Below are positions 20,120-35,221 of a DNA stretch of 64,000 nt, piece by piece. The position numbers and the translations under genes were made by a program. The stretch is taken from NCBI RefSeq assembly GCF_030013205.1, contig NZ_CP122648.1, one strand, 5' to 3'. Each line of letters begins with the position of its first letter. Position 1 is the stretch's first letter. Origin of the DNA: Escherichia coli (GTDB lineage Bacteria > Pseudomonadota > Gammaproteobacteria > Enterobacterales > Enterobacteriaceae). A model generated the notes under the pieces. The model was given only the letters and a program-made list of their open reading frames with translations, did no database searches and was not told where the DNA came from.

Positions 20120-20434
20120 GTGGTTGCTGATCATGAATATTTGTATTGGAAGATAATTGCAATGAGCGAAAGAGTGTTTGAGAAAGAACTATATTCTGAA
20201 TGGGTTATACGCAATAGTCTATATTGGATGACTCCGCTTACTCGATGGAAACTCCATGAAGACGTTTCCCACTGGATAATCTCTTTTGAAAACGATAATC
20301 CCAAATTCCTTTATGAATTCGATAGGCTGCTTAATGATTACTCTTTGCGAGAAAAGCTACAGCATAAAACAGGGGCGTTGAGAGACTCTATTGTCCATAA
20401 AGTGCTTCGCAGTGTTGATGAGAGGCTTTCATAA
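20120..20434 (+). CDS. hxsD: His-Xaa-Ser system protein HxsD (LLNDYxLRE-motif protein)
   Basis: 104-aa ORF containing ...FDRLLNDYSLREKLQHK...; stop overlaps hxsB start (TAATG); true start may be the internal ATG near 20162. Confidence 0.7.
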   Translation: MVADHEYLYWKIIAMSERVFEKELYSEWVIRNSLYWMTPLTRWKLHEDVSHWIISFENDNPKFLYEFDRLLNDYSLREKLQHKTGALRDSIVHKVLRSVDERLS

Positions 20435-21822
20435 TGGAATTGATGCCATTTAATTTTGACAGATTGCCTAATGGACAGGTGTTTATAAGCAACCTTGCAG
20501 GTTTTCATCATTTCATTGGTGAGCAAGACCTTATTGATCTTTCTGATGAGCGAATTAGTTCGGAGCAATCAAACGTGCTAGAAAGTAAGCTTTTCATAAC
20601 CAGTGAAAGCTCATCTGCTATAACTCCCTATGCTTTAAGTTCTGCTTTTGCAAAACGATTGATGAATGAACTGGCTGTCAGGCCAATTTTCATGATTGTA
20701 CCCACATTACGTTGTGACCATACATGCAAGTATTGCCAGGTTAGTAGAGCTTCTGTTAATGCCTCAGGTTACGACCTAAATCCTGAGCTCATCCCCGATA
20801 TTATTTCGGCTATTAAAAAACTATCAACGCCACCTTACAAAATAGAGATACAGGGTGGGGAGCCTCTCTTGCGGTTTGATTTAATTCAGAACATCTATGA
20901 TCAATGTGCTGAAACGCTGGGAAGAACCAATTTTGAGATGGTGGTGGCATCAAGTCTGTCTGTCTTGAATGAGGATATGATTGAATGGTCGAGAGACCGG
21001 AACATAACGTTCTCTGTGTCGCTTGATGGTGAGGAAGTTGTTCACAACAGTAATCGAATTCTTGGTCGTGGGCTTGCGTACAGTAGAACAGTGTCAGGGG
21101 TAGAGGCTATCAAACACTCTTTAGGTGCTGGCCGCGTTGCAACGGTTACTACAGTTACTAAAGAGCTTATCAGACGTCCTGAATCGATTGTTCAGGCTCA
21201 CTTGTCTCTTGGGCTCAAGGACATGTTTATCCGACCTGTTAGTCCCTATGGGTTTGCACAAAAAGCTTCTTTCACCTTTTCTATGGACGAATACTTCAGC
21301 TTCTATGCCTCGTTGATAGATGAAATCCTTAAGATTAATAATGAAGGGATAAGGGTTGTGGAACATTCGGCCTCCATTCATCTGAAAAGGATCTTCAATC
21401 CCGGTTTTAGTGGCTATGCGGATTTAAAGTCTCCAAGTGGAGTCGTGCTTAACAGTATTCTTTTCAATTATGACGGTCGAGTATATGGTAGCGATGAGAG
21501 CCGTATGTTGCAGAAGGTGAATCCTGAAACGGAGTTCAGTGCGGGTGAAGTTAAGACGCTATCATTTTCTGATAGTCCTTACTATAACGCAGTATTGACT
21601 TCATCGTTCAATTTTGCTCTGCCAGGTTGTGATACATGTGCATATCAACCATTTTGTGGTTCAGATCCATGCCAGAACATAAGTGTACAGGGTGAGCCTG
21701 TCGGCGATAGGAGTCGTTCAACGTTTTGTCAATATCACAAGGGGATGTTCAGGTATCTGATGAACTGCATCTCAGAGGGTGGTTCGAAGGCTGAGATGCT
21801 AAAAGGATGGGCATATGTCTGA
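20434..21822 (+). CDS. hxsB: Radical SAM / SPASM-type maturase, first of the pair (HxsB-like)
   Basis: 462 aa; CxxxCxxC in ...PTLRCDHTCKYCQVS...; C-terminal Cys cluster ...LPGCDTCAYQPFCGSDPCQNI...; overlaps the neighbouring genes. Confidence 0.8.
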   Translation: MELMPFNFDRLPNGQVFISNLAGFHHFIGEQDLIDLSDERISSEQSNVLESKLFITSESSSAITPYALSSAFAKRLMNELAVRPIFMIVPTLRCDHTCKYCQVSRASVNASGYDLNPELIPDIISAIKKLSTPPYKIEIQGGEPLLRFDLIQNIYDQCAETLGRTNFEMVVASSLSVLNEDMIEWSRDRNITFSVSLDGEEVVHNSNRILGRGLAYSRTVSGVEAIKHSLGAGRVATVTTVTKELIRRPESIVQAHLSLGLKDMFIRPVSPYGFAQKASFTFSMDEYFSFYASLIDEILKINNEGIRVVEHSASIHLKRIFNPGFSGYADLKSPSGVVLNSILFNYDGRVYGSDESRMLQKVNPETEFSAGEVKTLSFSDSPYYNAVLTSSFNFALPGCDTCAYQPFCGSDPCQNISVQGEPVGDRSRSTFCQYHKGMFRYLMNCISEGGSKAEMLKGWAYV

Positions 21823-22927
21823 GGTTATCAGGAACGATATCTTTCATTTTGCTTCTACAGAGAACGTGCCCACGGGGTTCTATCGGTTATGCAAACAAAA
21901 ACCAGTGAACCCTTTATTCTTTTTGCCCAATTTGCTAGTAGTTGCTGAGGGCAATAATGATGCCATTCCACCATGCTTTGATTTCTCTGTTATTAGCACT
22001 GAATTATTTGAGTCAATTGAAGATGGAGATATTGGGATAATCAACAATGGCAATATGATACGCGTTATTCTGTCACGCAAAGCCAACCATAATACTGTCT
22101 TAGTTACGGAACGCTGCAATAACTTGTGTCTGTTTTGTTCGCAGCCACCAAAGAAAATAAATGATGACTGGCTACTTACCCAATCAGCTCTTGCTATAGC
22201 TTCATTTGGCTTGAACGGAGTTGTTGGGGTCAGCGGTGGTGAACCTTTGCTATATGGGGATGACTTCCTTCACTTCATTGATTTTATCATCGAGAATTCA
22301 CCAGATACTGCTTTACATGTTTTAACAAACGGACGCAAATTTGCTGATACCAACTTTACACAGGAAATGGCAAAGCGAAGCAAAAAGATCAAAATCACCT
22401 TTGGTATCCCGCTCTACTCATCAAGACCACTTGTGCATGATCATCTGGTAGGGAGTGATGGCGCATTTAATGAAACGGTTAAAGGGTTAATCAATGCAGG
22501 AAACTTGGGGATTAATATCGAACTTAGAGTTATTCCTACACTGGCTAACTATACCGAATTGGATGATATCGTAGAATTCGCTGGCCGTGTGTTCTCCAAC
22601 ATCAATCAGATTTCCCTTATGGGGTTGGAGCCTATCGGTTGGGCACGAAAAAACTGGTCCACCATCTTCATTGATCACAGTAGTTATAGTGAGAAAATAA
22701 TCTCTGCCATAGACGCTGCATACAGGTCAGGCATACCTCTGACAATTTTTAATTATCCTTTGTGTTATCTTCCTGAAAGGGCTAGGGAGCTTGCTGTTCA
22801 GTCGATCTCTGATTGGAAAAATTACTATCCAAAAGAATGTGATGAATGTACTCAGAAGCCTTCCTGTGCTGGCTATTTCAGTTCCTCAAAAGGCCGTTTT
22901 CATCAATCACCGAGACCAATTTTATGA
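21815..22927 (+). CDS. hxsC: Radical SAM maturase, second of the pair (HxsC-like)
   Basis: 370 aa; CxxxCxxC in ...VTERCNNLCLFCSQP...; C-terminal Cys-rich ...CDECTQKPSCAGYF...; 8-nt overlap with hxsB, ATGA overlap with hxsA. Confidence 0.8.
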   Translation: MSEVIRNDIFHFASTENVPTGFYRLCKQKPVNPLFFLPNLLVVAEGNNDAIPPCFDFSVISTELFESIEDGDIGIINNGNMIRVILSRKANHNTVLVTERCNNLCLFCSQPPKKINDDWLLTQSALAIASFGLNGVVGVSGGEPLLYGDDFLHFIDFIIENSPDTALHVLTNGRKFADTNFTQEMAKRSKKIKITFGIPLYSSRPLVHDHLVGSDGAFNETVKGLINAGNLGINIELRVIPTLANYTELDDIVEFAGRVFSNINQISLMGLEPIGWARKNWSTIFIDHSSYSEKIISAIDAAYRSGIPLTIFNYPLCYLPERARELAVQSISDWKNYYPKECDECTQKPSCAGYFSSSKGRFHQSPRPIL

Positions 22928-23559
22928 AAAAGTTTAATTTTGCTGCTCTACTTCCGGGATTTTTGGCTCTCAACAATTCTGTATGGGCAAGCGATTCATC
23001 TACAGGAGCGAGTGATTTACCTGGTATGACTCTTAATGAGCATGATTTAGTGATAGCTCCACTTAACACGGAAGTCCCATTTTATATCGCAGGGCATCGA
23101 AGCCATAGTTCTCATAGGAGCCATAGCTCTCATAGATCCTCATCAGGTGGTGGATACTATGGTGGAAGTACCCCCTATTATCCAAAAACATACAGCTCAC
23201 CAAGTTCATCTGGTTCTTCAAGTTCAGGTGCAAGTTCCTCATCGTCCTCTTCCTCGGTGCGTGCACTTCGTTCTAACGATAATAATAGAACCACTAACAC
23301 GAGTTCTGTTGGAACTTCAGAGGTTAACCGTACGAGTAATGGGCTTGCTTCTGATGCAGAGAAACGTAAGCGATTGATTATGCGAGTTCAGTTCGCATTG
23401 CTGGACAGGGGATTTTATAACGGAAATATTGACGGCATAATGGGGCCATCCACAAGGCTGTCTGTGAAAAATTACCGCATTGCGAATGGATTACCGATTC
23501 CTGCAACTGAAACACTCGACGCACAATTGTTAAATTCTTTGAATATATTAGCTCGCTAA
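22924..23559 (+). CDS. hxsA: His-Xaa-Ser repeat protein (HxsA-like), secreted, with peptidoglycan-binding-like C-terminal domain
   Basis: From internal ATG of track ORF 22846..23559: MKKFNFAALLPGFLALNNSVWA (signal peptide), HRSHSSHRSHSSHRS (5 HXS repeats), Ser/Gly-rich linker, C-terminal ...RVQFALLDRGFYNGNIDGIMGPSTRLSVKNYRIANGLPIPATETLDAQLL. Confidence 0.8.
   Translation: MKKFNFAALLPGFLALNNSVWASDSSTGASDLPGMTLNEHDLVIAPLNTEVPFYIAGHRSHSSHRSHSSHRSSSGGGYYGGSTPYYPKTYSSPSSSGSSSSGASSSSSSSSVRALRSNDNNRTTNTSSVGTSEVNRTSNGLASDAEKRKRLIMRVQFALLDRGFYNGNIDGIMGPSTRLSVKNYRIANGLPIPATETLDAQLLNSLNILAR
23097..23135 (+). repeat. Short in-frame tandem DNA repeat encoding the His-Xaa-Ser units
   Basis: agccatagttctcatagg / agccatagctctcataga-like 18-nt units; coordinates approximate. 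Confidence 0.6.
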
Positions 23560-23899: not shown

Positions 23900-25471
23900 T
23901 TACTGAGAGCTCAGATCAACTTTCCAGGGCAACAGATCGCGTACCCGGTTTGCCGGCCAGTCCTGGATATGTTCAATGACGTAACGCAGCCACTTTTCTG
24001 GCTCCACATTGTTCAGACGGCATGTGCCGATCAGCGAGTACAACACCGCCGCATGTTCACCACCGCTGTCGGAACCCGCGAACATCCAGTTTTTCCGGCC
24101 TACGGCCACTCCCCGTAAGGCGTTCTCTGCGGTGTTGTTGTCGATTTCCACCCAGCCATTACTGCAGTACACGTTCAGTGCATCCCACTGTTTCAGCAGG
24201 TATGCGAACGCTTTTGCCGTATCTGAGTGACGCGACAGTGTTTTCATCTGTTGCTGTATCCAGTCATACAGTGACTGCATCAGTGGCGCGGCTCTGGCTT
24301 TTCTTGCCGCCAGACGCTGTTCTGCTGAACAGCCCCGGACCTCTGCCTCGATGGCATACAGTTCACCGATACGCTGCAGGGCTTCCGTGGTGATGTAGGT
24401 GGGCGCTCTTGCATGCACATCGTGGATTTTTCTCCGGGCATGAGCCATACACGCGGCTTCCGTTATTCTGCCGGATTCGTATAACGCCCGGTAACCACCG
24501 TAAGCATCGGCCTGAAGCACACCGCTGTAACCGGCCAGGTGATTTTGTGGATGGATACCTTTCCGGTCCGGACTGTACGCGAACCAGACCGCCGGGGGCA
24601 TCTGTGAACCGGCGTTACGGTCATCACGGACGTAGACCCACAGCCGGGCTGTCCGGGTTTTACCGCTGCCCGGCTCCTGGACCGGGACGGGGATATCATC
24701 AGCATGGACTTTACCGGGCATCAGCACATACTGGCGCAGGACGTCATACAGCGGCTCCAGCAGTTCAGCAACAGCACCTGTCCAGCGCCCCAGTGTGGCA
24801 CGGCTCAGCTCCACTCCCTGACGACGGTATATTTCTGACTGGCGGTATAACGGCAGATGGTCTGCATATTTCCCGGTGACAACATGGGCCAGAAGCCCCG
24901 CTCCGGCATAACTGCGTGCAATGGGTTTTGAAGGTACTGGTGCCTGTACGATATGGTCGCACCGGCAACAGGCCTGTTTCGGACGTTGTGTTTCGATAAC
25001 CTTAAAGGCGCTGCTGATAAGCTCCAGTTGCTCTGACACATCACATCCCAGAGAACTGAGTTCACCACCACAGGCAGGACAGCATTCCTCTTCCGGCCGG
25101 ATAACCCGGGTTTCACGGGGAAGTGAGGCCGGTAACGGTTTACGGGCTGAAGACTGGCGCAGGGCGGATGGCAGTACCGGGTCATATTGCTCACCCAGCG
25201 TTTCCGCCATTTCTTCCTGAAGTGCGCTGATTCGCTCCTGTGCTTCCTGTATCTGCCGTTCGGTTTTTGCACGAAGTTTTTCTGAGCTTTTACCGAACTG
25301 CATACGTTGCAGTTTCGCAACCAGCGCCTTCAGCCGGTTGATTTCGGAAGCATAAGCCGCCACCCGCTGTGAGAGCAGGCGGTTGTATTCAGCCATCTGG
25401 CGGATGGTGTCCTGTTGCGTCTGCAACAGTGCCCGCAGGCGGGCGTTCTCATGAGCAAGTGAGGTGTCCAT
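23900..25471 (-). CDS. IS66-family transposase TnpC
   Basis: 523 aa with leucine-zipper-like N-terminus, Cys cluster (CPACGG...CRCDH) and C-terminal ...[23 protein letters not shown]... typical of IS66 TnpC. Confidence 0.85.
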
Positions 25472-25490
25472 ATCCTCACTTTACAACGGG

Positions 25491-25838
25491 TTATATGCGG
25501 ATTCCAGCGCGTTCCGTTCGTTTCGGGTGCTTCCAGTTGATACCTTCAAGAAGCATGGATAACTGAGCCGGAGTAAGGTGCACCTTGCCGTCACGGGTGA
25601 CTGGCCAGACGAAGCGGCCCCGCTCCAGGCGTTTGGTGAAGAGGCACAGTCCGTCACTGTCAGCCCACAACACTTTTATCTGGTCACCCCGGCGTCCGCG
25701 GAAGATGAACAGGTGTCCGGAGAACGGGTCATCCTTCAGGACGTTCTGAACTTTTGATGCCAGGCCGTTAAAGCCATTTCGCATATCGGTGATACCTGCA
25801 ACCAGCCAGATACGCGAACCTGCAGGGAGAGATATCAT
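25491..25838 (-). CDS. IS66-family accessory protein TnpB
   Basis: 115 aa, ...RIWLVAGITDMRNGFNGLASKVQNVL... Confidence 0.8.
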   Translation of the reverse strand: MISLPAGSRIWLVAGITDMRNGFNGLASKVQNVLKDDPFSGHLFIFRGRRGDQIKVLWADSDGLCLFTKRLERGRFVWPVTRDGKVHLTPAQLSMLLEGINWKHPKRTERAGIRI

Positions 25839-26515
25839 CAGTGGCTGCTCCCTTTTATTTCGCGGATAAGTGTCTGTAATAACGCCGGCGTCAGTTTACC
25901 TTTAAGCCTGAGAGTTCCGGCCGGCAGAACCAGCTCACAACACAGACTGTCGGACGGTGTATTTATCTGCTCTGGTTCCTGTGCGGGGGCCGGGATTTTA
26001 TTATCCGGCTCCGGCGTTAACGTCACGGGAAGCAGTGCCGGCATATTTTTTCCGGAAGGCAGCAGGCCACCTTTCCGGTATTGATGGCGCCAGTTGAAGA
26101 GCAGGTTATCGTTGATTCCGTTTTCCCGGGCGATCTGCGCCACACAGGCTCCGGGCTGCAGTGACTGCTCCACTAAGGCGATTTTAAACTCATAAGGGAA
26201 GTTGGGCCGCCGGGGACGTTTTTTTACCACGGGGGCTTCGGATATAACGGTGCTTTCAGGACGTACGACTGGTACCGTGGAAAATTGTCCGTAAAGGCAG
26301 GCATCAAGTTCCTGCTCCGACATGCCTGCGGGCAAAGGCCACGAAAGGCCAGCTCTCCGAAAGCGCACGAACATACTACAAACTGTTGATTTTGGTACAC
26401 CCAGGCGACGCCCGGCCACAACCCGGGGTAAATGTTCTTCAAAGTGAAGACGTAAAGCTTCAGTGATCCAGGTCCGGTGTTTCATACGATAGTGTCCATT
26501 AAAAATGATGGACAT
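25838..26515 (-). CDS. IS66-family accessory protein TnpA (start uncertain; track ORF may be over-extended)
   Basis: ...RPRRPNFPYEFKIALVEQSLQPGACVAQIARENGINDNLLFNWRHQYRKGG... Confidence 0.65.
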   Translation of the reverse strand: MSIIFNGHYRMKHRTWITEALRLHFEEHLPRVVAGRRLGVPKSTVCSMFVRFRRAGLSWPLPAGMSEQELDACLYGQFSTVPVVRPESTVISEAPVVKKRPRRPNFPYEFKIALVEQSLQPGACVAQIARENGINDNLLFNWRHQYRKGGLLPSGKNMPALLPVTLTPEPDNKIPAPAQEPEQINTPSDSLCCELVLPAGTLRLKGKLTPALLQTLIREIKGSSH

Positions 26516-26568
26516 TATTTTTGTAGAGCCGGAGGAAACAGACCAGACGGTTTAAATGAGCCGGTTAC

Positions 26569-26576
26569 ATGCATTT
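26569..26576. repeat. Target-site duplication (right copy) of the IS66-family element
   Basis: ATGCATTT. Confidence 0.7.
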
Positions 26577-27266
26577 CGGGGTAGAGTTCTGCACGCCCAC
26601 GTGCCAGCGTGATGGAAAATGATGCGGCTCCGCGTTGTAGCTGCTGCCACTTTGCCGCCGCTGCGCGTCTTGCTGCCTGCTCGTTCTGATAAGTCTTGCG
26701 TAACACAAACACATTGCCTTCCGCACCTTCCATATAATCACCTTCACGGCTGCTGCTTTTCTCCTTTTTAGGTTTTGGTGGTTTGCGGCGTTTCACACTG
26801 ACTTTTTTCTTTTTCCCGTAATTAAGATCAAGCCAGTAAGCGCGTACCCCCGTATACGCTTCGCGGTCAGCAATGCGGAACTGATGGCGATCGCCGCTGT
26901 TGCGCGTGATGGCGAACGATGGCAACGGCTGGCCCTGTGCGTTCACGCCACCGCCTGGCATGATGAATAACAGATTATCGCTTTTTACCGTGGTGATTGC
27001 GCCCAGCATTTCCGCCATGCGCGTAAGGAAGGACATGTCGCTTTCTTCGGTCTGGTCGGCGTGGTCGATTTCGATATCCATCAGCATTTCGCTGATTTGC
27101 GGTTTCAGGCCGTACCGATGAGCGATGGCGGATACCACACGCTCAACGGTCACATCATGCCAGGACACCTCACGTTTAACGTTAAATTCATCCCGAAAAT
27201 CTGCGCTTCTGGCTGAAACAGTCAGCCTGTCCGGCGGTCCTTCGTGAGCGATTTCATCAACAATTA

Positions 27267-27685
27267 GACTGGCCCCCTGAATCTCCAGACAACCAATATC
27301 ACTTAAATAAGTGATAGTCTTAATACTAGTTTTTAGACTAGTCATTGGAGAGCAGATGATTGATGTCTTAGGACCGGAGAAACGCAGACGGCGTACTACA
27401 CAGGAAAAGATCGCTATTGTTCAGCAGAGTTTTGAACCGGGAATGACGGTCTCCCTTGTTGCCCGGCAACACGGTGTGGCAGCCAGCCAGTTATTTCTCT
27501 GGCGCAAGCAATACCAGGAGGGAAGTCTTACTGCTGTGGCCGCAGGAGAGCAGGTCGTTCCTGCCTCTGAACTTGCTGCTGCCATGAAGCAGATTAAAGA
27601 ACTCCAGCGCCTGCTCGGCAAAAAAACGATGGAAAATGAACTCCTTAAAGAAGCCGTTGAATACGGGCGTGCAAAAAAAGTGGAT
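27267..27685 (+). mobile_element. IS2 left-end fragment (IRL plus 5' part of insC/orfA), truncated near IS2 position ~416
   Basis: TAGACTGGCCCCCTGAATCTCCAGACAACCAATATCACTTAAATAAGTGATAGTCTTAATACTAGTTTTTAGACTAGTCATTGGAG... then Ins[57 protein letters not shown]...[10 protein letters not shown]; homology ends just after the A-run; remainder of IS2 absent. Confidence 0.8.
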
Positions 27686-30247
27686 ACAGTGCTCAGCGAA
27701 AAACAACAAAAGCTGATGCAGCAGTTAAGCACCCGGCTTGAACGCCTGAATGAATCGCGCACACGGGAAATTCAGAAAATGCGGGAGCTTGGCGGAGAGC
27801 TGAAACGCCACGGCATTTCCCTGACAGGCAGCGATAACACCATCCAGCAGGCCATCAGACGCACCGAACAGTACAACAACCAGCTTGAACGCGAACGGCA
27901 GGCGCTTGCGCGTGTAACACGGGCGCGTGAGCGGTATTCGCGCGCGCAGGAAACAGCGGGAAAACTGAAAACAGGTGGTGCGCTGGCAATTGGTGCGGCA
28001 ACGGCGGGCGGCTATGCTGCCGGGCGTTTTTTGCAGCCTGCGATCGGGTTCGGCAAAGAGATGTCCCGCGTTCAGGCACTGACGCGAATCGACAAAAACA
28101 GCCCGCAGTTTAAGGCGCTGCGTGAGCAGGCGTTAAAACTTGGCTCTGAAACACAGTTTACTGCGAGTGATGCCGCCAGTGGGCAGAGCTTTCTGGCAAT
28201 GGCTGGTTTTACTCCGCAGGCCATTCAGGCCGCATTGCCCGGTGTTCTTAATATGGCGCTGGCAGGTGGCGTCGAACTCGGCGAGACGGCTGATATAGGC
28301 TCCAATATCCTCACACAGTTCAACCTGACAGCCGATCAAATGGACCGTGTTGGCGATACGCTGACAGCAGCATTCACCCGGACCAATACTGATTTACGCG
28401 CGCTGGGCGAAACCATGAAGTATACCGGTCCGGTTGCCGCAAAACTTGGTATCAGTCTTGAAGAAGCGGCGGCCATGGCCGGGATGCTTGCCAATAATGG
28501 TCTTCGCGGAAGCGATGCTGGTACGGCCATGCGCGCAAGTCTGTCCCGCCTTGCATCACCGCCAAAAGCTGCGGCTGATGCACTGAAAGAGCTGGGGGTG
28601 TCAGTTGCTGACGCCAGAGGCAAAATGCGCCCGATGGAGGATGTGCTGCTTGATCTCTATAAGGCGACACAAAAATACGGACAGGTGGACCAGGTTTCCT
28701 TCTTCAAGGACATCGCCGGAGAAGAGGCGTTCGTTGGTTTGCAGACGCTTGTTGCGGCGGCTGGTTCAGGAGAGCTGCAAAAACTGACCAGAGAATTGCA
28801 GGGGGCAAGGGGAGAGGCCGATCGCGTCGCAAAAGTAATGGCCGATAATCTTGATGGGGACCTGAAAAATCTCGACAGCGCATGGGAAGGTCTTCGTATT
28901 CGCATCAGTGATCTGGTTGACGGTCCGCTGCGTTCTGTCACGCAGTGGCTCACGCGGGTGCTTGAAAAAATCACCTCGCTGGCGCAGGCCCATCCGGTAC
29001 TGACGCGCCAGCTACTGATAGCAGGCGGTGCGTTGCTGGCAATGACTGCAACGATTGGCTCGTTGTCGCTGGTTATTGGGGTGCTTTACGGGAAGCTGGC
29101 CACCCTGCGTCTTGGTTTTGACATTCTTACCCGGTCAATGAATGTCGTCAGGGTGTTGCCTGCGCTGTGGGGAATGGTGACGGGTTCCGTTTCTTTACTG
29201 GGAGGCGCCATCGGGGCGTTGTTCAGTCCGGTTGGTCTTATCGTGGCTGCGCTTGCCGGAGCTGCCGTTCTTATCTGGAAATACTGGGATCCCATCAGGG
29301 CATTTTTTGCCGGGGTGTTCAGCGGGATTATGGAAAGGCTGACCCCGTTGCGCGAAACCTTTGAACGGTTTGGTCCTGTTTTTGACACAATCGGAAGCGG
29401 GATCAGCCAGGTGTTTAACTGGTTTAAATCGCTGCTGTCACCGATGGAGTCCAGCAAGGAAACGCTGGATAAATGTACCAGTGCTGGCGAGATATTCGGT
29501 AACGTTCTTGGCGGTGCGTTACAGCTTGTTCTGACACCTGCAAAAATGCTACTGGATACGCTGGCGTGGATACTTGAAAAACTTGGCGTCCTTCCGGATG
29601 AAGCGGAAAGGGCGCGCAAGAAAATCGAAGACGCACAGCGTGCGGCCATTCTTCAGGACAAGGTTGCCTTGCTTCAGGGTGACCTGGCGAAAATCAATCC
29701 GCCGAAGCCTGTGGAAAATGGCAATGGCACCGGAGGTAATAAACCCAAAGACAACAAACCGCTCACAGACAGCAATACCGGGACGCTACGCAGACTCAGC
29801 AAAATTGCTGATAACACAGGTAAGCTGGTTGATGAGACGAAAAAACGCATTGGCCCCGGCGATATTGTCTTTAAGAACCTGCCCCGCGCACTTGCTGTTC
29901 GTGGAGAGTGGCAGGAGCGGAAGATTGCGCAGGTCAGTAAGCCTGCCCCCGCAATTAATATCACACCCGTGGTCCCGGCTCCGCTGCCTCCGGCGCTGGT
30001 CCCTGTTGTTGCGGCCAGCTCCCGCCCGGTGGCGGAGGCCATACGATCTCCAGTGGCATCAGTTCCTGTAACTTCCCGTAACCGGGAGCCTGTTGCCTCC
30101 GGATTTGGTGGTGAAATTCATGTTCATCTGCATAACGTTGTTACGCAGAATCCCCGCGAACTGGCGAAACTGGTCGGTGAAATGGTCAGGGCAGAAATGG
30201 AACGGCGCGCCCGTGCCGGGCGTGGCAGTTTTTACGATAAAGATTGA
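27356..30247 (+). CDS. Chimeric ORF: IS2 InsC N-terminal ~110 codons fused in frame to a P2 gpT-like tail tape measure protein
   Basis: Track ORF 27311..30247 (978 aa); after ...EYGRAKK the sequence continues as tape-measure-like (..[71 protein letters not shown]..). Confidence 0.75.
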
Positions 30248-30253
30248 GGAGTC

Positions 30254-30748
30254 ATGGCCATGATGATGATCTACGGCATGTTTGTTTTTGAGCTGCGCAC
30301 GCTGCCGCATCAGCAGTTACAGCAAAACAAAAGCTGGCGGCATGTGAAAAATGAACGCGTTAACCGTTCAGCAAGCTGGCAGTATATCGGTGCAGGTGAT
30401 GATCGCATCGTTCTTTCTGGTATGCTTTATCCTGAAATTACAGGTGGCGAAGTGTCGCTGTCGCTGCTGACCACGCAGGCGTATACAGGACGCCCCTGGC
30501 CTCTTATTGATGGCGTCGGGCAGATTTACGGCATGTATGTCCTGACCGAAACGAATACGACCCGTTCCGAGTTTGATCGCTACGGTAAGGCGAAAAAGAT
30601 AGAATTTTCACTGACCCTTGAACGCTGTGATGAGGATTTGCGGGAGCGCCTGCAATCCTCATCGTTCAGCGATATGCTGTCCGGCTTCAAAGATAAAGTG
30701 ACATCATCCCTTAACAGCGCGGCCAGTTCAGTTAAAGGGCTGTTCTGA
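30254..30748 (+). CDS. P2 gpU-like tail protein
   Basis: MMMIYGMFVFELRTLPHQQLQQNKSWRHVKNERVNRSASWQYIGAGDDRIVLSGMLYPEITGGEVSL... resembles P2 gpU (MMVLGMFVFELRT...). Confidence 0.8.
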   Translation: MAMMMIYGMFVFELRTLPHQQLQQNKSWRHVKNERVNRSASWQYIGAGDDRIVLSGMLYPEITGGEVSLSLLTTQAYTGRPWPLIDGVGQIYGMYVLTETNTTRSEFDRYGKAKKIEFSLTLERCDEDLRERLQSSSFSDMLSGFKDKVTSSLNSAASSVKGLF

Positions 30749-30918
30749 TTTAATGCTGGCCACTCATACCCTCATACCTGGTAATAAGTGGCCAGTCTTA
30801 ACACTCACCATTTGATTGCACCAGTGTTAACGATTTGTTACTGGACATCAGACACGCTGGATAGCCAGTAGAAACATACCATAAAAATTATTACAATAAT
30901 TGGTCACATGATTATCTT

Positions 30919-31482
30919 ATGCTGAATAATAGAGATATGAATATTAATGAACTTAAAGATTGTATTCACTATGAAGTAATCGGTAGCGAGCGTCCTTTCT
31001 CCTGGCGAAAGGCAATTGTTCGCGCAATAAAACATAGAAGAGTTCGTTATTTATTTTGGTGGCGCATAGCCAAATACCTTTTTGATAAAGGCGGATACTG
31101 TCGGAAGATTGCGGGGAAAATAGAACGTTTCATTCTTGATAAATATAATGTAACAGTCCCTTTAACTGTAAATATAGGGAAAGGCTTTGATATTTCTTAT
31201 CTCAACAGTGTTGTTATCGGTCACAAAGTAACAATCGGTGAAAATTGTTCAATAAAACCAGGGGTAACTATTGGGCTGCGTGGTGATTTTAATGATATGG
31301 ATATTGTTATAGGACATAATGTGACCATTGGTTGTAATGCCACCATTCTTGGTGGCAAAGTGCGTATAGGAAACAATGTCACAATAGGTGCTCATGCATT
31401 GGTATTGCATGATATTCCAGATGATTCAACATTCATCACTAAATTTCAGTCTGAAGTTATCTGCTCGTCCTCCCGCACATAA
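30919..31482 (+). CDS. Hexapeptide-repeat (left-handed beta-helix) acetyltransferase, AT-rich cargo gene
   Basis: Repeats of [LIV]-G-x-x-x-x-I-G ([22 protein letters not shown]...[33 protein letters not shown]); low GC; 3' end overlaps tfa 3' end. Confidence 0.75.
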
Positions 31483-32063
31483 CCCTGATTCATCAGCTCT
31501 GGCCATACGATATCCGGAGCTGTACTGGTGTCAATTCTACTCACTAATACTCTGTATTTTCTCCAGGAATCCAGTTGTGAATTTTCCTCGTTTGTTGCTA
31601 TTTCAAGATTAACTGCATCCTGCAGAATTGCGATGTTATCTGTTGCTTCCTGGATCAACCTTGCCTTTTTCTCTTCCGCTTCCCGTATCCGAAACAGTTT
31701 TTCTGCTTCCTCATCCTTCACCCAGGATACGCCGTCCCACTTCTGATACTCCCCTGCTGGCGACAACCAGGTGACATTCTCTGGTAGCGGTCCGGGTTCA
31801 GAAATAAACAACGCGTCCCCCGATGCCACGTCATAGACCGTTTTACCACGATGGTCTTCAACAATATTCCACGATTCATTTTCACTGTTAAAAACTGCCA
31901 CAAAGCCAGCAGGAATTTCCGGTGGGGCGATATCTGTAGAATTGGCTGGCAGCCCTGTATGAGGTGGAATATATGCGTCACCTTCACCAATAAACTCATT
32001 AGTTCCGGCCAGCAGGTTATAAATTTTTACAGTACGTGATTGTTCACTCATTCTGAATGCCAT
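31446..32063 (-). CDS. Tail fibre assembly chaperone (Tfa; P2 gpG-like)
   Basis: 205 aa immediately downstream of, and start/stop-overlapping with, the tail fibre gene; Tfa-like sequence. Confidence 0.75.
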
Positions 32064-33724
32064 TATGCAAGCCTCACAATATAATTAAATGCGATGTTTT
32101 TAACGGTGTTTTCCGCGTTACCAGCAGCGTTAACGGTGATGGTGTGTCCATGTGAACCAATCGCAACAGAGTGCGTATGAGCGCCAATACCAACAGTGTG
32201 TGCATGTGCCCCAGCACTTGTAGCGGTACCTGATACTGAGTGGGTATGTGCGCCAGAAGAAGGCACAGTTCCATTCCCCACCACCGTGCCACTTGATGCA
32301 CCATCAAGCCAGTCGAAATTCATACCTCCACTGTTTGGTCTCCTTAATGGAACGGTATGTGTATGTGCGCCAGCACTATTTGCAGTACCAGATACATTGT
32401 GGGTATGTGCACCAGTGTTATTCGTTGATTTAGTACCGTAATCAAACGACGATGTGGTTTTCGTACCCAAATCCGTACTGGATGCGCTGGCACTGTGGGT
32501 GTGCGATTTAATGCCATCCTGTTCCTGAGACAATACGGCCCGACCACTGGCGGGTTTGCCCTTGATTGTCCAGCCGCGCATATCTGGAATAACACCAGAA
32601 GGATAGGCAATAGCCAGTTTCGGATATGCTGCCTTATCAAACGTCTGCCCCTGCATGATTGCATAACCTGCAGGTGGCGTATCTGATGGCCACGGCAGCG
32701 GAACACCTGGCGGAAACGCTTCAATATTTGCCGAGCCGTCAAATTTTACGCCGTTAATTGTCCTTGCCGTTTTCAGCTTTGTTGCTGTAGCAGCATTGCC
32801 GGATAGTTCGCCAGAAAGACCACCGCTGAATGTCTGTTTCGCCGCCCATGTCTGAGCTTCGTCGATAATTGGCACACGTCTTGTCGTAATCGTGCGGCTT
32901 CCCGGATTTCCTGAAATGCGAACCATAAAAAAGCGGTAATTCGCTTTACTTGCAGTGCTGCGCCATACATGCATTGAGCGCCCCGTACCGAAATCATCAC
33001 TCGGACCAACTGCGATGTTTATCAGGTTGCCATCAATGACGCCCCAGTCCATACCGTCGGGAATATTGGTCATGTTATCAAGCCGAACGGTTATCAGACT
33101 GCCCGGCACAAAATCGTAGGTCTGCCAGTCCAGGCTGGTGAGTTTTGCCACTGCGCCACCGATCCCCATATTCAGGGGCAACGAAAAGGAGTTATACACT
33201 TCTCGCCATTCGGTCCATGTGCTCCCGGCGTAGACGCGCTCAAAAGTGCGCCCCTGTGTGGTTTCTGATTTCCCTGTGGTTGTGTAACGCTGCCAGACAG
33301 ATACACCATCAAAACGCCTGATTACTTCCAGTATCCCAAGCAATGTCGCCCCAGCAGCGTCCAGCATCGGACCGTTTGTCGCCTTTCCTGTAACACTGTA
33401 AATACCGGGGTCGGTTAGAACATTCAAATCACCTTCGTAATAACGGCTCTCTGACTGATGACCGACTCTTAACCACGGTTCCCACTGCGGATTTGATGCA
33501 TCCCAGCTTGCCGCAAGGCAGCGAACGTACATATTCCCACGACGAGTGGTATAACGTTGCGTTCTTCCATAATTCCCGCCTTCGAGGATCTCAAGCGTCC
33601 CCTGAGCAAAGCCGCCTTCCTCTGGATAATTGCGTTCATATGAAGCTATAGCCGAGCTACTGTTACGCCATAAACCAAGATGCTCAGCGGCTCCAAGCGT
33701 ATTCAGGTCTATAGTCGTACTCAA
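32063..33724 (-). CDS. Phage tail fibre protein
   Basis: 553 aa; ...[41 protein letters not shown]... and C-terminal His-rich repeats [38 protein letters not shown]. Confidence 0.8.
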
Positions 33725-34000
33725 AGGGCGGGTAGTTCAAGAAGCTGTTCCGGAGCGTTTGTTGATGATCCCGATCTGCATAAAAATATTCTTATTTGCT
33801 ATCCGTATGGTAACTATGAATATGACAATATTATCTATGTTGAAAAGAAAACTAATGCATTGGGCGTTGTTGTGACGTATGCACAGACTGCACGAGACGA
33901 TGCTGAATAAGATACTACAGAGATAGTCCACTTTTTTGTTTATTTGTCGGGATAAAAACAAATTACCCCGACTCACCATGTATTAATCTTCCGCTTTAAG

Positions 34001-34384
34001 TTAGTCTTGTAGCTGCGCTGTCCTGCTATGCAGCAAAGCGGCGTACTTTAATGCGTCCTGTGCTTTCTGGAATTTAAGTGCATAGTCAGTGGCGATTTTT
34101 TCCAGTTCAGCGATTCGGTTGTCTTTGGTTTCCAGCCAATCAAGTAGCGCCAATACTTCAGGATCCCCGACATCCAACACTGTTACGCGTGATTTTTCAT
34201 AATGTTCGTCGGCAAGAGTTCGACCAATTTTGAAATCTCCATCATCACCATAACCGGAGCAGCCATAAACAACCTGTGCTCCAGATATTCGCTGAATTGA
34301 CATTTCTTCGCCGCAAATAGGGCATTTTGGTACTGGTGCAGGTGAATAACGTTCACGTAATGCCTGATAGTTGATTTTGCTCAT
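34001..34384 (-). CDS. Hypothetical phage protein with CxxC zinc-ribbon-like motif
   Basis: 127 aa, ...PVPKCPICGEEMSIQRISGAQVVYGCSGYG...; no family recognised. Confidence 0.4.
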   Translation of the reverse strand: MSKINYQALRERYSPAPVPKCPICGEEMSIQRISGAQVVYGCSGYGDDGDFKIGRTLADEHYEKSRVTVLDVGDPEVLALLDWLETKDNRIAELEKIATDYALKFQKAQDALKYAALLHSRTAQLQD

Positions 34385-34642
34385 TAAGTCGCTCTTCTTG
34401 TTTATGTTCTGAGATGGAGATCAGGGCGAACTCGCCCTGACGTTGTGTTATTCAGGAAATAACGCCCTGATATTTCCGGCCATCTGACTGGTTATCTGTG
34501 CGGTTGGTACTGGCTGTGACAGGGGGCGTTCTGTCCTGGTTTGTGTCACTGATAACGCCTCATCGTCAGCCCATGCAGCCAGTCGGTAAGCCTCTGCCGG
34601 ATTCATTTTCAGAAGTGCCAGCCCGGCCAGAAAAGCCACGCG

Positions 34643-35221
34643 TTGGCCGCTTTTGCGGGCTTCCGGTGTAAGGCTGTCCAGCCAGGCGCATGCTTCGCTT
34701 TCGTTCTTGACGGCCGCAGGCTTCAGATAGAAACTTATCTGAGTAAGTCTGAATGTGTTCAGTTGCTGGATGCACTGGCTGAAAATCCCGATGAACGGCT
34801 GGCTGTCGAAATCCTTCTGTCGACCGGGGCGCGATGGGGCGAGGTAGCGGTACTGGAGCAGCGCCGTGTTCTTCATTGTCGAATCACTTTTTCAAAAACG
34901 AAGAACAGCAAAAACCGTACCGTTCCTATTTCTGAAAGCCTGTTTGAAAAGATCAAAAAACGGGGCGGGAAACTGGTGTTTCCGACGCTGGATTATCCAT
35001 TGGTTCGCGATGTCATCAAAACGGTCGCATCTGATGTTCCTGACGGCCAGGCTGTTCATGCGCTGCGCCACACCTTCGCCAGTCATTTCATGATGAACGG
35101 CGGCAATATTCTGACGCTCCAGAAAATTCTGGGGCACGCAAAGATTCAGACAACGATGATTTATGCCCATCTTGCGCCGGATTACTTGCAGGATGCGGTG
35201 AGATTTAATCCAATAGCTTGA
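34643..35221 (+). pseudogene. int: Tyrosine recombinase (phage integrase) C-terminal catalytic-domain fragment
   Basis: ...LSTGARWGEVA...NRTVPIS...HALRHTFASHFMMNGGNILTLQKILGHAKIQTTMIYAHLAPDYL (R, HxxR, catalytic Y); ~190 codons versus ~330 for full length; N-terminal domain not found in frame. Confidence 0.7.

Follow-up and report, generated by a model that had tools for sequence, protein, structure and literature searches.

Acetyltransferases carried by prophages can alter surface antigens, phage sensitivity and immune recognition, as is seen for NeuO, and the O-antigen acetylases of Shigella and Salmonella are further prophage examples of surface modification. NeuO itself, the polysialic acid O-acetyltransferase of prophage CUS-3, is a capsule-modifying enzyme with the left-handed beta-helix (LbH) fold (PMC3046976), and capsule O-acetylation of the NeuO type is reported to enhance resistance to phage and to killing by neutrophils (PMC13001214), while acetyltransferases of Klebsiella prophages have been associated with K-loci (PMC13123978). 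The subject here is a gene, called acT below, that lies in a P2-like prophage at 30937..31482 (+; alternative ATG at 30919) of a 64,000-nt stretch of Escherichia coli DNA (NCBI RefSeq assembly GCF_030013205.1, contig NZ_CP122648.1; this whole stretch is “the window”). On the evidence of profiles, an AlphaFold2 (AF2) model and Foldseek its product, 181 aa long (187 aa from the alternative start), is an acyltransferase-like LbH protein resembling CysE and WcaB, and the gene is convergent with tfa, which encodes a tail fibre assembly chaperone.

Like NeuO, then, acT is a prophage-encoded LbH accessory gene, but the two belong to different LbH subfamilies, the local match to PDB entry 2wlc covering just 49 residues at E = 0.0024. 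NeuO has the catalytic residues His147 and Trp171 and a heptanucleotide variable-number tandem repeat at its 5′ end, whereas acT has a tyrosine in place of the catalytic histidine, and Tandem Repeats Finder (TRF) found no repeats in its coding region, hence no phase-variation repeat of the NeuO kind.

As regards position, the closest precedents are the accessory genes found downstream of gene G in P2-like phages. One is P2 Z/fun, directly downstream of G and transcribed against it; another is neaT, an AT-rich acyltransferase gene at the same P2 slot, the slot between G and FI being described as “moron position 2” (PMC3573123). acT lies on the same side of G as both, and it shares with Z/fun its orientation and with neaT an orientation opposite to the tail genes, a strongly AT-rich composition and an annotation as acyltransferase. 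However, Z/fun is a different gene, neaT encodes a membrane protein of the acyltransferase_3 family (PF01757) unrelated to acT in sequence and fold (PMC3573123), and the slot of acT has U in place of FI as its boundary and lies between two late operons that are read towards each other.

The protein has an LbH fold, a tyrosine maintained by purifying selection stands where its relatives carry the general-base histidine, and the gene has moved between phage backbones together with tfa and the tip of the tail fibre; neither the fixed His-to-Tyr change under purifying selection nor the obligate travel with a tip/chaperone cassette across backbones is described in the literature searched. The reading we favour, tentatively, is that acT is a moron expressed in the lysogen that acts on a sugar or glycan of the cell envelope, its catalysis being non-canonical or lost.

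Family, fold and active site

A program-made list of open reading frames (ORFs) gives acT as 30919..31482 (+), 187 aa, the length reported by a first-pass annotation made from the letters of the window. Starting at a second in-frame ATG (30937) shortens the protein to 181 aa, and this form is favoured because it is the start chosen by the Prokaryotic Genome Annotation Pipeline (PGAP; WP_001447286.1, product “transferase”) and because the N-termini of homologues in MAFFT alignments begin there, with the motif M-x-x-x-x-L-K-E/D-C. acT is a genuine gene. Its AT-richness, also remarked on at first pass, is clear: GC is 0.376 (GC3 0.293) for the gene alone and 0.36–0.40 over 30650-31400, against about 0.52 on both flanks, and horizontal acquisition is supported.

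Membership of the LbH superfamily, likewise proposed in the first-pass annotation, is borne out by two Pfam Hexapep matches (4.4e-6 and 1.8e-5), by an AF2 model (pLDDT 89) in which four N-terminal helices are followed by a left-handed beta-helix with short, regularly spaced beta-strands, and by Foldseek, whose best 50 PDB matches are all serine acetyltransferases (TMq about 0.7), with the same outcome from sequence searching. A full-length match (4e-79) was found to phrog_2154, of unknown function, aligning residues 5-186 with positions 2-184 of a 185-position profile.

Closer placement was judged from NCBIfam profiles against their curated cut-offs, and none of these is reached. The best models are EpsC (NF041874; 80.7 bits against a cut-off of 150, E = 9.5e-23), CysE (TIGR01172, 70.5 bits against 210.65; NF008349, 44.2 against 397) and WcaB (NF007564, 62.2 bits against 196, 3.8e-17; TIGR04016, 59.8 against 194.65; residues 82-173 only). 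The grouping with WbbJ or WcaF that had been suggested earlier finds no support, as WbbJ reaches 39.8 bits against 243 (residues 127-171) and WcaF 26.1 against 192; nor are the best matches to be found among the maltose/galactoside or antibiotic acetyltransferases, which the same annotation had named as homologues that would count against a surface role. LacA gives a short, weak match to generic coil, and Vat, CatB and Maa match over about 40 residues of generic hexapeptide coil at 22–31 bits, against cut-offs of 300–475. Judged from these profiles, acT is a short CysE/WcaB-type LbH protein that passes no curated family threshold.

Proteins of the WcaB/EpsC type resemble acT in length (about 180 aa), in architecture (a bundle of helices at the N-terminus, then a left-handed beta-helix) and in being among its best profile matches, but acT differs from them in its scores far below the cut-offs, in having tyrosine for the histidine of the catalytic “xxH” motif, and in its setting, being carried by phages with tfa, and not glycosyltransferase genes, as its partner. 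Among solved structures those of CysE are nearest (phmmer 6e-12, Foldseek 7.5e-9, TMq about 0.7), sharing with acT the LbH core and the last helices of the N-domain. Nevertheless the label “serine acetyltransferase” that databases attach to the family is probably wrong: acT is not a CysE, because the curated cut-offs are missed, the SATase_N domain is absent (no Pfam match) and the residues equivalent to His158, Asp143, Arg192 and His193 of CysE are all replaced.

These replacements were traced by phmmer alignment to PDB entries 6wye and 4n69 (serine acetyltransferases from N. gonorrhoeae and soybean) and by MAFFT, the His/Tyr equivalence resting on the PDB alignments together with database homologues. 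The position of the catalytic base, His158 in E. coli CysE, is occupied in acT by Tyr94 (Tyr88 in the 181-aa numbering; codon TAT, 31198..31200, +) in the context “DISYLNS”; Asp143, the partner of the catalytic histidine, becomes Thr, and Arg192 and His193, which we take to be the serine-binding residues of E. coli CysE, become Met and Asp respectively. Among 113 homologues of at least 140 aa the catalytic column holds His in 95, Tyr in 14 and Asn in four, and the 14 tyrosine proteins are exactly the clade closest to acT, at 53–100% identity. The histidine is the general base and is conserved across LbH enzymes (PMC8786284), all crystallised members sharing it (PMC3046976), so that with tyrosine at this position acetyltransferase activity of acT cannot be assumed, and any chemistry it has must differ from the textbook mechanism.

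It would be natural to suspect a decaying allele, but the evidence is otherwise. Within the tyrosine clade the ratio of nonsynonymous to synonymous substitution rates (dN/dS) is 0.02–0.08 where measurable, synonymous sites being saturated between deeper members, and five copies encode the tyrosine by TAT and one by TAC; low dN/dS, together with a tyrosine kept through synonymous saturation in both codon forms, indicates that the tyrosine form is under purifying selection.

It is the tyrosine that gives rise to the main rival of the envelope-glycan reading, which is that members of this clade are pseudo-enzymes that bind acetyl-CoA, a nucleotide sugar, a lipid-linked intermediate or a host protein without transferring acetyl, or that poison a host LbH enzyme by entering mixed trimers with it. 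The restriction of the change to the acT clade fits such a role, as do the accompanying loss of the Asp143, Arg192 and His193 equivalents and the lack of any further histidine common to its members (yong2, P0014 and P0013 have Leu or Arg in place of His101), while purifying selection implies that the tyrosine form does something. On the other hand, the hexapeptide coils and the C-terminal region, which binds coenzyme A in relatives, are fully conserved, a tyrosine hydroxyl could still join in catalysis, and some LbH N-acetyltransferases work without a catalytic base. On balance we consider a pseudo-enzyme unlikely, though an explanation to be taken seriously.

The exchange module of acT, tfa and fibre tip

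The first-pass annotation described acT as inserted next to tfa, which is true as far as it goes but understates the association, as acT is a fixed part of an exchange module that also comprises tfa and the fibre tip. By blastn, 30658-33735 of the window is 95.4% identical to a group of 47-kb phage-plasmids and to the induced phage vB_EcoM-613R2, the shared block consisting of the last 91 nt of gpU (30658-30748; alignment with L005 and L002 starts at 30658), kept as a remnant upstream of acT, followed by acT itself, tfa and the C-terminal part of the fibre gene. A shorter block, 30849-32695, is 93.6% identical to a P1-like phage-plasmid (L004) and holds the promoter region, acT, tfa and the fibre tip. 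Homology in the fibre gene ends at 33735 with L001, L002 and L005 and at 32695 with L004, and in the plasmid replicons the left neighbour of acT is a repA or holin gene, not gpU. Promoter region, acT, tfa and tip have thus been transferred together between backbones, and the block is exchanged as one unit among P2-like prophages, 47-kb phage-plasmids and P1-like phage-plasmids.

Since homology with L004 starts at 30849, the left end of the minimal conserved cassette is the segment 30849..30918 (+), and it is here that a sigma-70-like promoter site is found: TAGAAA (30869-30874), a 17-nt spacer and TACAAT (30892-30897), the -10 element being a perfect TATAAT in the L004 copy. The site is kept across three backbones and, on sequence grounds, is a putative promoter for acT.

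At the other end acT meets tfa (31446..32063, -; 205 aa, phrog_105 7e-94), and the convergence of the two genes with a 3′ overlap of 37 nt (31446..31482, counting stop-inclusive ORFs) is as first reported. The overlap is kept in P2-like, 47-kb and P1-like copies. In the window the C-terminus of Tfa carries a 13-aa extension read antisense through the last codons of acT, whereas other Tfa proteins stop four residues past a conserved WP motif (WPTPPQ*, WPELVE*, WPVAPQ*), and the tfa partner of a 91%-identical acT variant (L046-L053) stops 14 nt past the end of acT, so that the two do not overlap. It therefore looks as if a small deletion joined the ends of the two convergent genes in a single sub-lineage, which later spread over three backbones. 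No terminator was found between acT and tfa, so that antisense transcription over the junction would be possible.

Among 5426 complete E. coli genomes acT DNA is present in 183 (about 3%), with 59 places on plasmids, and copies 100% identical to that in the window occur in other prophages, for example in an O6:H16 strain (L001). By comparison, tfa genes with an N-terminal part 80–90% identical are found in 2824 of the 5426. All 183 records at least 90% identical to tfa fall within the 211 that cover at least 80% of a joint acT and tfa query; every tfa match at that level therefore includes acT. The association also extends to more distant phages: homologues 37–53% identical to acT are known from Hafnia phage yong2, Citrobacter phage phiNP (about 40%) and phage JL22 (37%), those of yong2 and phiNP being convergent with tfa.

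A scan of IMG/VR viral contigs yielded 80 acT loci, 77 of them assessable, and in 56 of the 77 a convergent tfa lies directly downstream (-33 to +57 nt). For loci of the tyrosine type the count is 33 of 35 (one not assessable, one other), and for the histidine type 22 of 44, with four beside an integrase, 16 without a tfa recognised by the marker panel and two not assessable; the single locus with a gap at the catalytic column also has a convergent tfa. Four of the 16 histidine-type loci without a recognised tfa have a convergent tail fibre gene directly downstream. The idea that the tyrosine clade is specifically the tfa-linked one was considered and is ruled out, as phiNP, JL22 and the 22 IMG/VR loci just mentioned are of the histidine type and are likewise convergent with tfa.

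Exchange can also be seen within a single slot. On one P2-like backbone (gpU 93–99% identical) three divergent acT alleles occur, each with a different tfa allele: the window type; a histidine-type allele 49–52% identical to it (L057/L058), with a phiNP-like tfa; and an allele 96% identical to acT of JL22 (L094), with a JL22-type tfa. Over 24 dereplicated modules the divergence of acT is correlated with that of tfa (Mantel test, Spearman r = 0.36, reached by none of 2000 permutations), a value to be expected from physical linkage with occasional recombination, and therefore no proof of a functional tie to the receptor. That the acT type tightly tracks the fibre-tip type was entertained and found to have moderate support only, given that discordant pairs exist and that linkage alone gives a correlation.

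Familiar cases exist in which a receptor-blocking gene, expressed early or in the lysogen, is tied to the receptor-binding module and so moves with it, namely llp beside pb5 in T5 and cor beside the tail fibre genes of phages of the phi80/N15 type. These encode small lipoproteins or membrane proteins that block FhuA, whereas acT is a cytoplasmic LbH protein for which a masking role would be hypothetical. acT might be a new kind of receptor-coupled factor, either a non-canonical enzyme that masks the receptor of the fibre linked to it, so that superinfection exclusion would move along with host-range specificity, or a non-catalytic LbH protein that disturbs an envelope pathway; we give this proposal a low probability.

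In the P1-like phage JL22 (L009, ON018986.2) the homologue (5022-5498) is placed at the centre of the Cin-invertible C segment (2327-7790), which has 602-nt inverted repeats, 99% complementary, and it stands between two alternative tfa genes; as it lies inside the invertible segment, it is flipped with the host-range switch. Near acT itself there is no invertase core of the cix/gix type (AAACCNNGGTTT), its count being at chance level, and no inverted repeats were found in 30200-34000. A locus outside phages was noted on the chromosome of Enterobacteriaceae bacterium BIT-l23 (L012, 6001-7697), where the histidine-type P0015, 49% identical to acT, heads a tandem row of three Hexapep genes (181, 193 and 195 aa).

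The slot and its prophage

The gene on the left, gpU (30254..30748, +; phrog_76 “tail protein” 2e-74; PGAP “phage tail protein”), is the last of the FI-U tail operon, and 3′ of its stop there is a stem-loop (30755..30796, +). This hairpin, pointed out at first pass, is real and strong: it has a 10-bp stem (30755-30764 / 30787-30796), a folding free energy of -21.7 kcal/mol and z = -4.97, and none of 200 shuffles folds equally well. No T-run follows it. Its loop holds an 8-bp tandem duplication (CTCATACC twice, 30763-30778; TRF), the sole repeat found, and in the 47-kb phage-plasmid copies the duplication is missing and the stem has one mismatch. The hairpin may mark the 3′ end of the tail operon or act as its terminator. 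An Rfam scan of 30200-32200 gave nothing in the intergenic region, only a sub-threshold match to IS009 (RF02111) inside tfa (31522-31720, -; 80.8 bits against a gathering threshold of 117, E = 3.7e-18, full model length); as this match falls wholly within the tfa coding region, it is suggested that the Rfam family was built on tfa-derived prophage sequence.

The locus as a whole is what remains of a P2-like prophage in decay, with hxsABC/ISCro1 on one side and btuC on the other, and the window matches the chromosome of porcine enterotoxigenic E. coli (ETEC) strains at 100% identity, ETEC1748 being one example. Of the prophage genes, gpU, acT and tfa are whole, but T, D and H are truncated or pseudogenes. 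The tail fibre gene H (32063..33735, -; phrog_295 5e-144; PGAP pseudogene) is 5′-truncated and retains the C-terminal, receptor-binding part, in which direct repeats of 33–65 nt with spacings of 42 and 159 nt (32192-32432, -) correspond to repeated G-A-H-T-H-x-V (His-x-His) motifs of the fibre tip. The state of the prophage raises the question of whether the junction between U and acT is merely a rearrangement artefact, and this can be ruled out: the complete prophage L017 (RIVM_C040348; NZ_CP134716.1 1604805-1633538), with a full-length gpD of 369 aa, has the same order, namely ogr(-), D(-), FI FII E E′ T U (+), acT (+), G H I J W V … O (-), P Q (+). In this E. coli prophage lineage, which L001 and L016 share (gpD being annotated as truncated in both), the FI-FII-E-E′-T-U operon runs the opposite way to that of P2, away from D and towards G. 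It is because of this inversion that acT sits where two late operons, FI-U and V-G, converge and that its slot is bounded by gpU and not FI. The earlier assignment of the locus to the P2 Z/fun slot consequently stands as regards an accessory slot downstream of G but not as regards the far neighbour.

A frameshifted acT in E. coli strain 1190 (L016, 14189-14733), in a prophage that is otherwise near-complete, shows that the phage does not need the gene. As far as sequence can tell, acT has the hallmarks of a moron, being of foreign composition, preceded by a promoter-like site, placed between operons and dispensable.

Further observations concern the surroundings. Directly to the left of the prophage remnant are hxsB, hxsC and hxsA (20434-23559, +), of the His-Xaa-Ser radical-SAM maturase system, followed at 23900-27345 by ISCro1 (IS66-family: tnpA, tnpB, transposase), which abuts a 5′-truncated gpD (26515-27345, -), another sign of a dead prophage in which U, acT and tfa have stayed whole. 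Next comes an ORF of 978 aa (27311-30247, +) that is a chimera, in which a fragment of an insertion sequence (IS)-type transposase OrfA is fused in frame to a 5′-truncated P2-like tape-measure gene; PGAP gives it as two pieces, 27356-27688 and 27674-30247, both pseudogenes, and homology to an intact prophage begins only at 27682. At the right end (34001-35221) an Ead/Ea22-like fragment, a plasmid partition/stability-like gene (phrog_2515) and a truncated tyrosine integrase precede btuC, and these look like leftovers of another element, lambdoid or plasmid-like, rather than of the P2-like phage.

What acT may do

The link to glycans comes from relatives. The nearest ones outside the enterobacteria (P0025, P0038, P0028 and P0037) lie, in all four cases examined, inside polysaccharide biosynthesis clusters, with neighbours that include flippases, glycosyltransferases of families GT2 and GT4, NeuB, EpsG, a polysialyltransferase and polymerases. 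In one IMG/VR contig (L098) an acT homologue is followed by a convergent HtrL_YibB gene (PF09612, 1.1e-78; 3753-4610, -) and then by tfa and fibre. The homologue and the HtrL_YibB gene make up a two-gene accessory region there; htrL presumably lies beside the lipopolysaccharide core cluster in K-12.

On the favoured reading, acT would be transcribed in the lysogen from its own sigma-70-like promoter, towards the end of the tail-fibre operon, and its product would be a soluble, probably trimeric CysE/WcaB-type acyltransferase-like protein that acts from the cytoplasmic side on an envelope sugar or lipid-linked glycan intermediate, which it modifies. The gene would then serve in lysogenic conversion or receptor masking, with a possible effect on the cell surface or on phage adsorption, and not as a maker of O-acetylserine. 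NeuO, neaT and the K-locus-associated acetyltransferases of Klebsiella prophages are precedents in keeping with such a role.

A number of points weigh against this proposal. Literature searches for a characterised function of acT homologues gave only mentions, without experiments: the JL22 paper calls the reason for its serine acetyltransferase gene “still unknown” (PMC9603915), and the phiNP paper lists its homologue as “fitness” cargo (PMC6456863). No glycan pathway of E. coli is tied to acT, and the hosts are so varied in serotype that a substrate could only be some structure that they have in common. With tyrosine for the catalytic histidine, acetyl transfer may be lost or changed. The association of acT with tfa may be due to a slot that tolerates accessory genes and to physical linkage, and not to function, and discordant pairs such as window and JL22 are known, where acT is 37% identical and tfa 78%; moreover, some homologues lie beside an integrase or outside phages altogether.

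The remaining explanations, that acT is a serine or antibiotic acetyltransferase, a defence gene or a protein directed at the virion, are each less likely than either the envelope-glycan reading or a pseudo-enzyme. The first of them would have acT acetylate a small molecule (serine, another metabolite, an antibiotic or a toxin) to the metabolic benefit or resistance of the lysogen. It has on its side the database name and the closest solved structures, as well as the weak local matches to Vat, CatB, LacA and Maa. It is made improbable by the CysE scores, far below their cut-offs, by the replaced serine-binding and catalytic residues and missing SATase_N, by the confinement of the Vat, CatB and Maa matches to generic coil, and by the location of relatives in polysaccharide clusters rather than cysteine operons.

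A gene for anti-phage defence or counter-defence, acting inside the cell, might be expected at a P2-type hotspot, and the slot downstream of G, that of P2 Z/fun (described in PMC3573123), the promoter-like site and the foreign composition would all suit such a gene. Against this, the defence models of PADLOC-DB 2.0 gave no family even at E values up to 1, and acT is a single gene without a partner. To our knowledge no defence system is built on an LbH protein, and the chance that acT is one seems small.

Very unlikely, in our view, is a role directed at the virion, in which acT acetylates, or helps to assemble, the neighbouring trimeric tail fibre or Tfa. The tight and wide linkage to tfa and fibre tip across backbones would suit it, and LbH proteins and tail fibres are both trimeric. 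However, acT runs counter to the late operon, behind a sigma-70-like promoter, the near-complete prophage of strain 1190 carries it with a frameshift, certain homologues have an integrase or no phage genes beside them, and the same kind of tip is found without acT in thousands of genomes. Finally, that acT is a decaying relic without function in this strain is barely credible, since, although the prophage is a dead remnant with T, D and H truncated and strain 1190 has a frameshifted copy, the reading frame here is unbroken and matches other prophage copies (L001, O6:H16) at 100% identity, dN/dS is 0.02–0.08 across backbones and the promoter-like site is intact.

acT moves with a determinant of phage host range and is found on chromosomes and phage-plasmids alike, where it is routinely mislabelled “serine acetyltransferase”; should it prove to be an ordinary sugar O-acetyltransferase, it would be a routine moron with a corrected annotation. 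The His-to-Tyr change, for its part, bears on the question of whether catalysis by LbH acyltransferases can do without its canonical base. If acT does modify a receptor or glycan, host-range switching and lysogenic conversion would be coupled in a single recombination event, which would be of relevance to phage therapy, serotyping and vaccine antigens.

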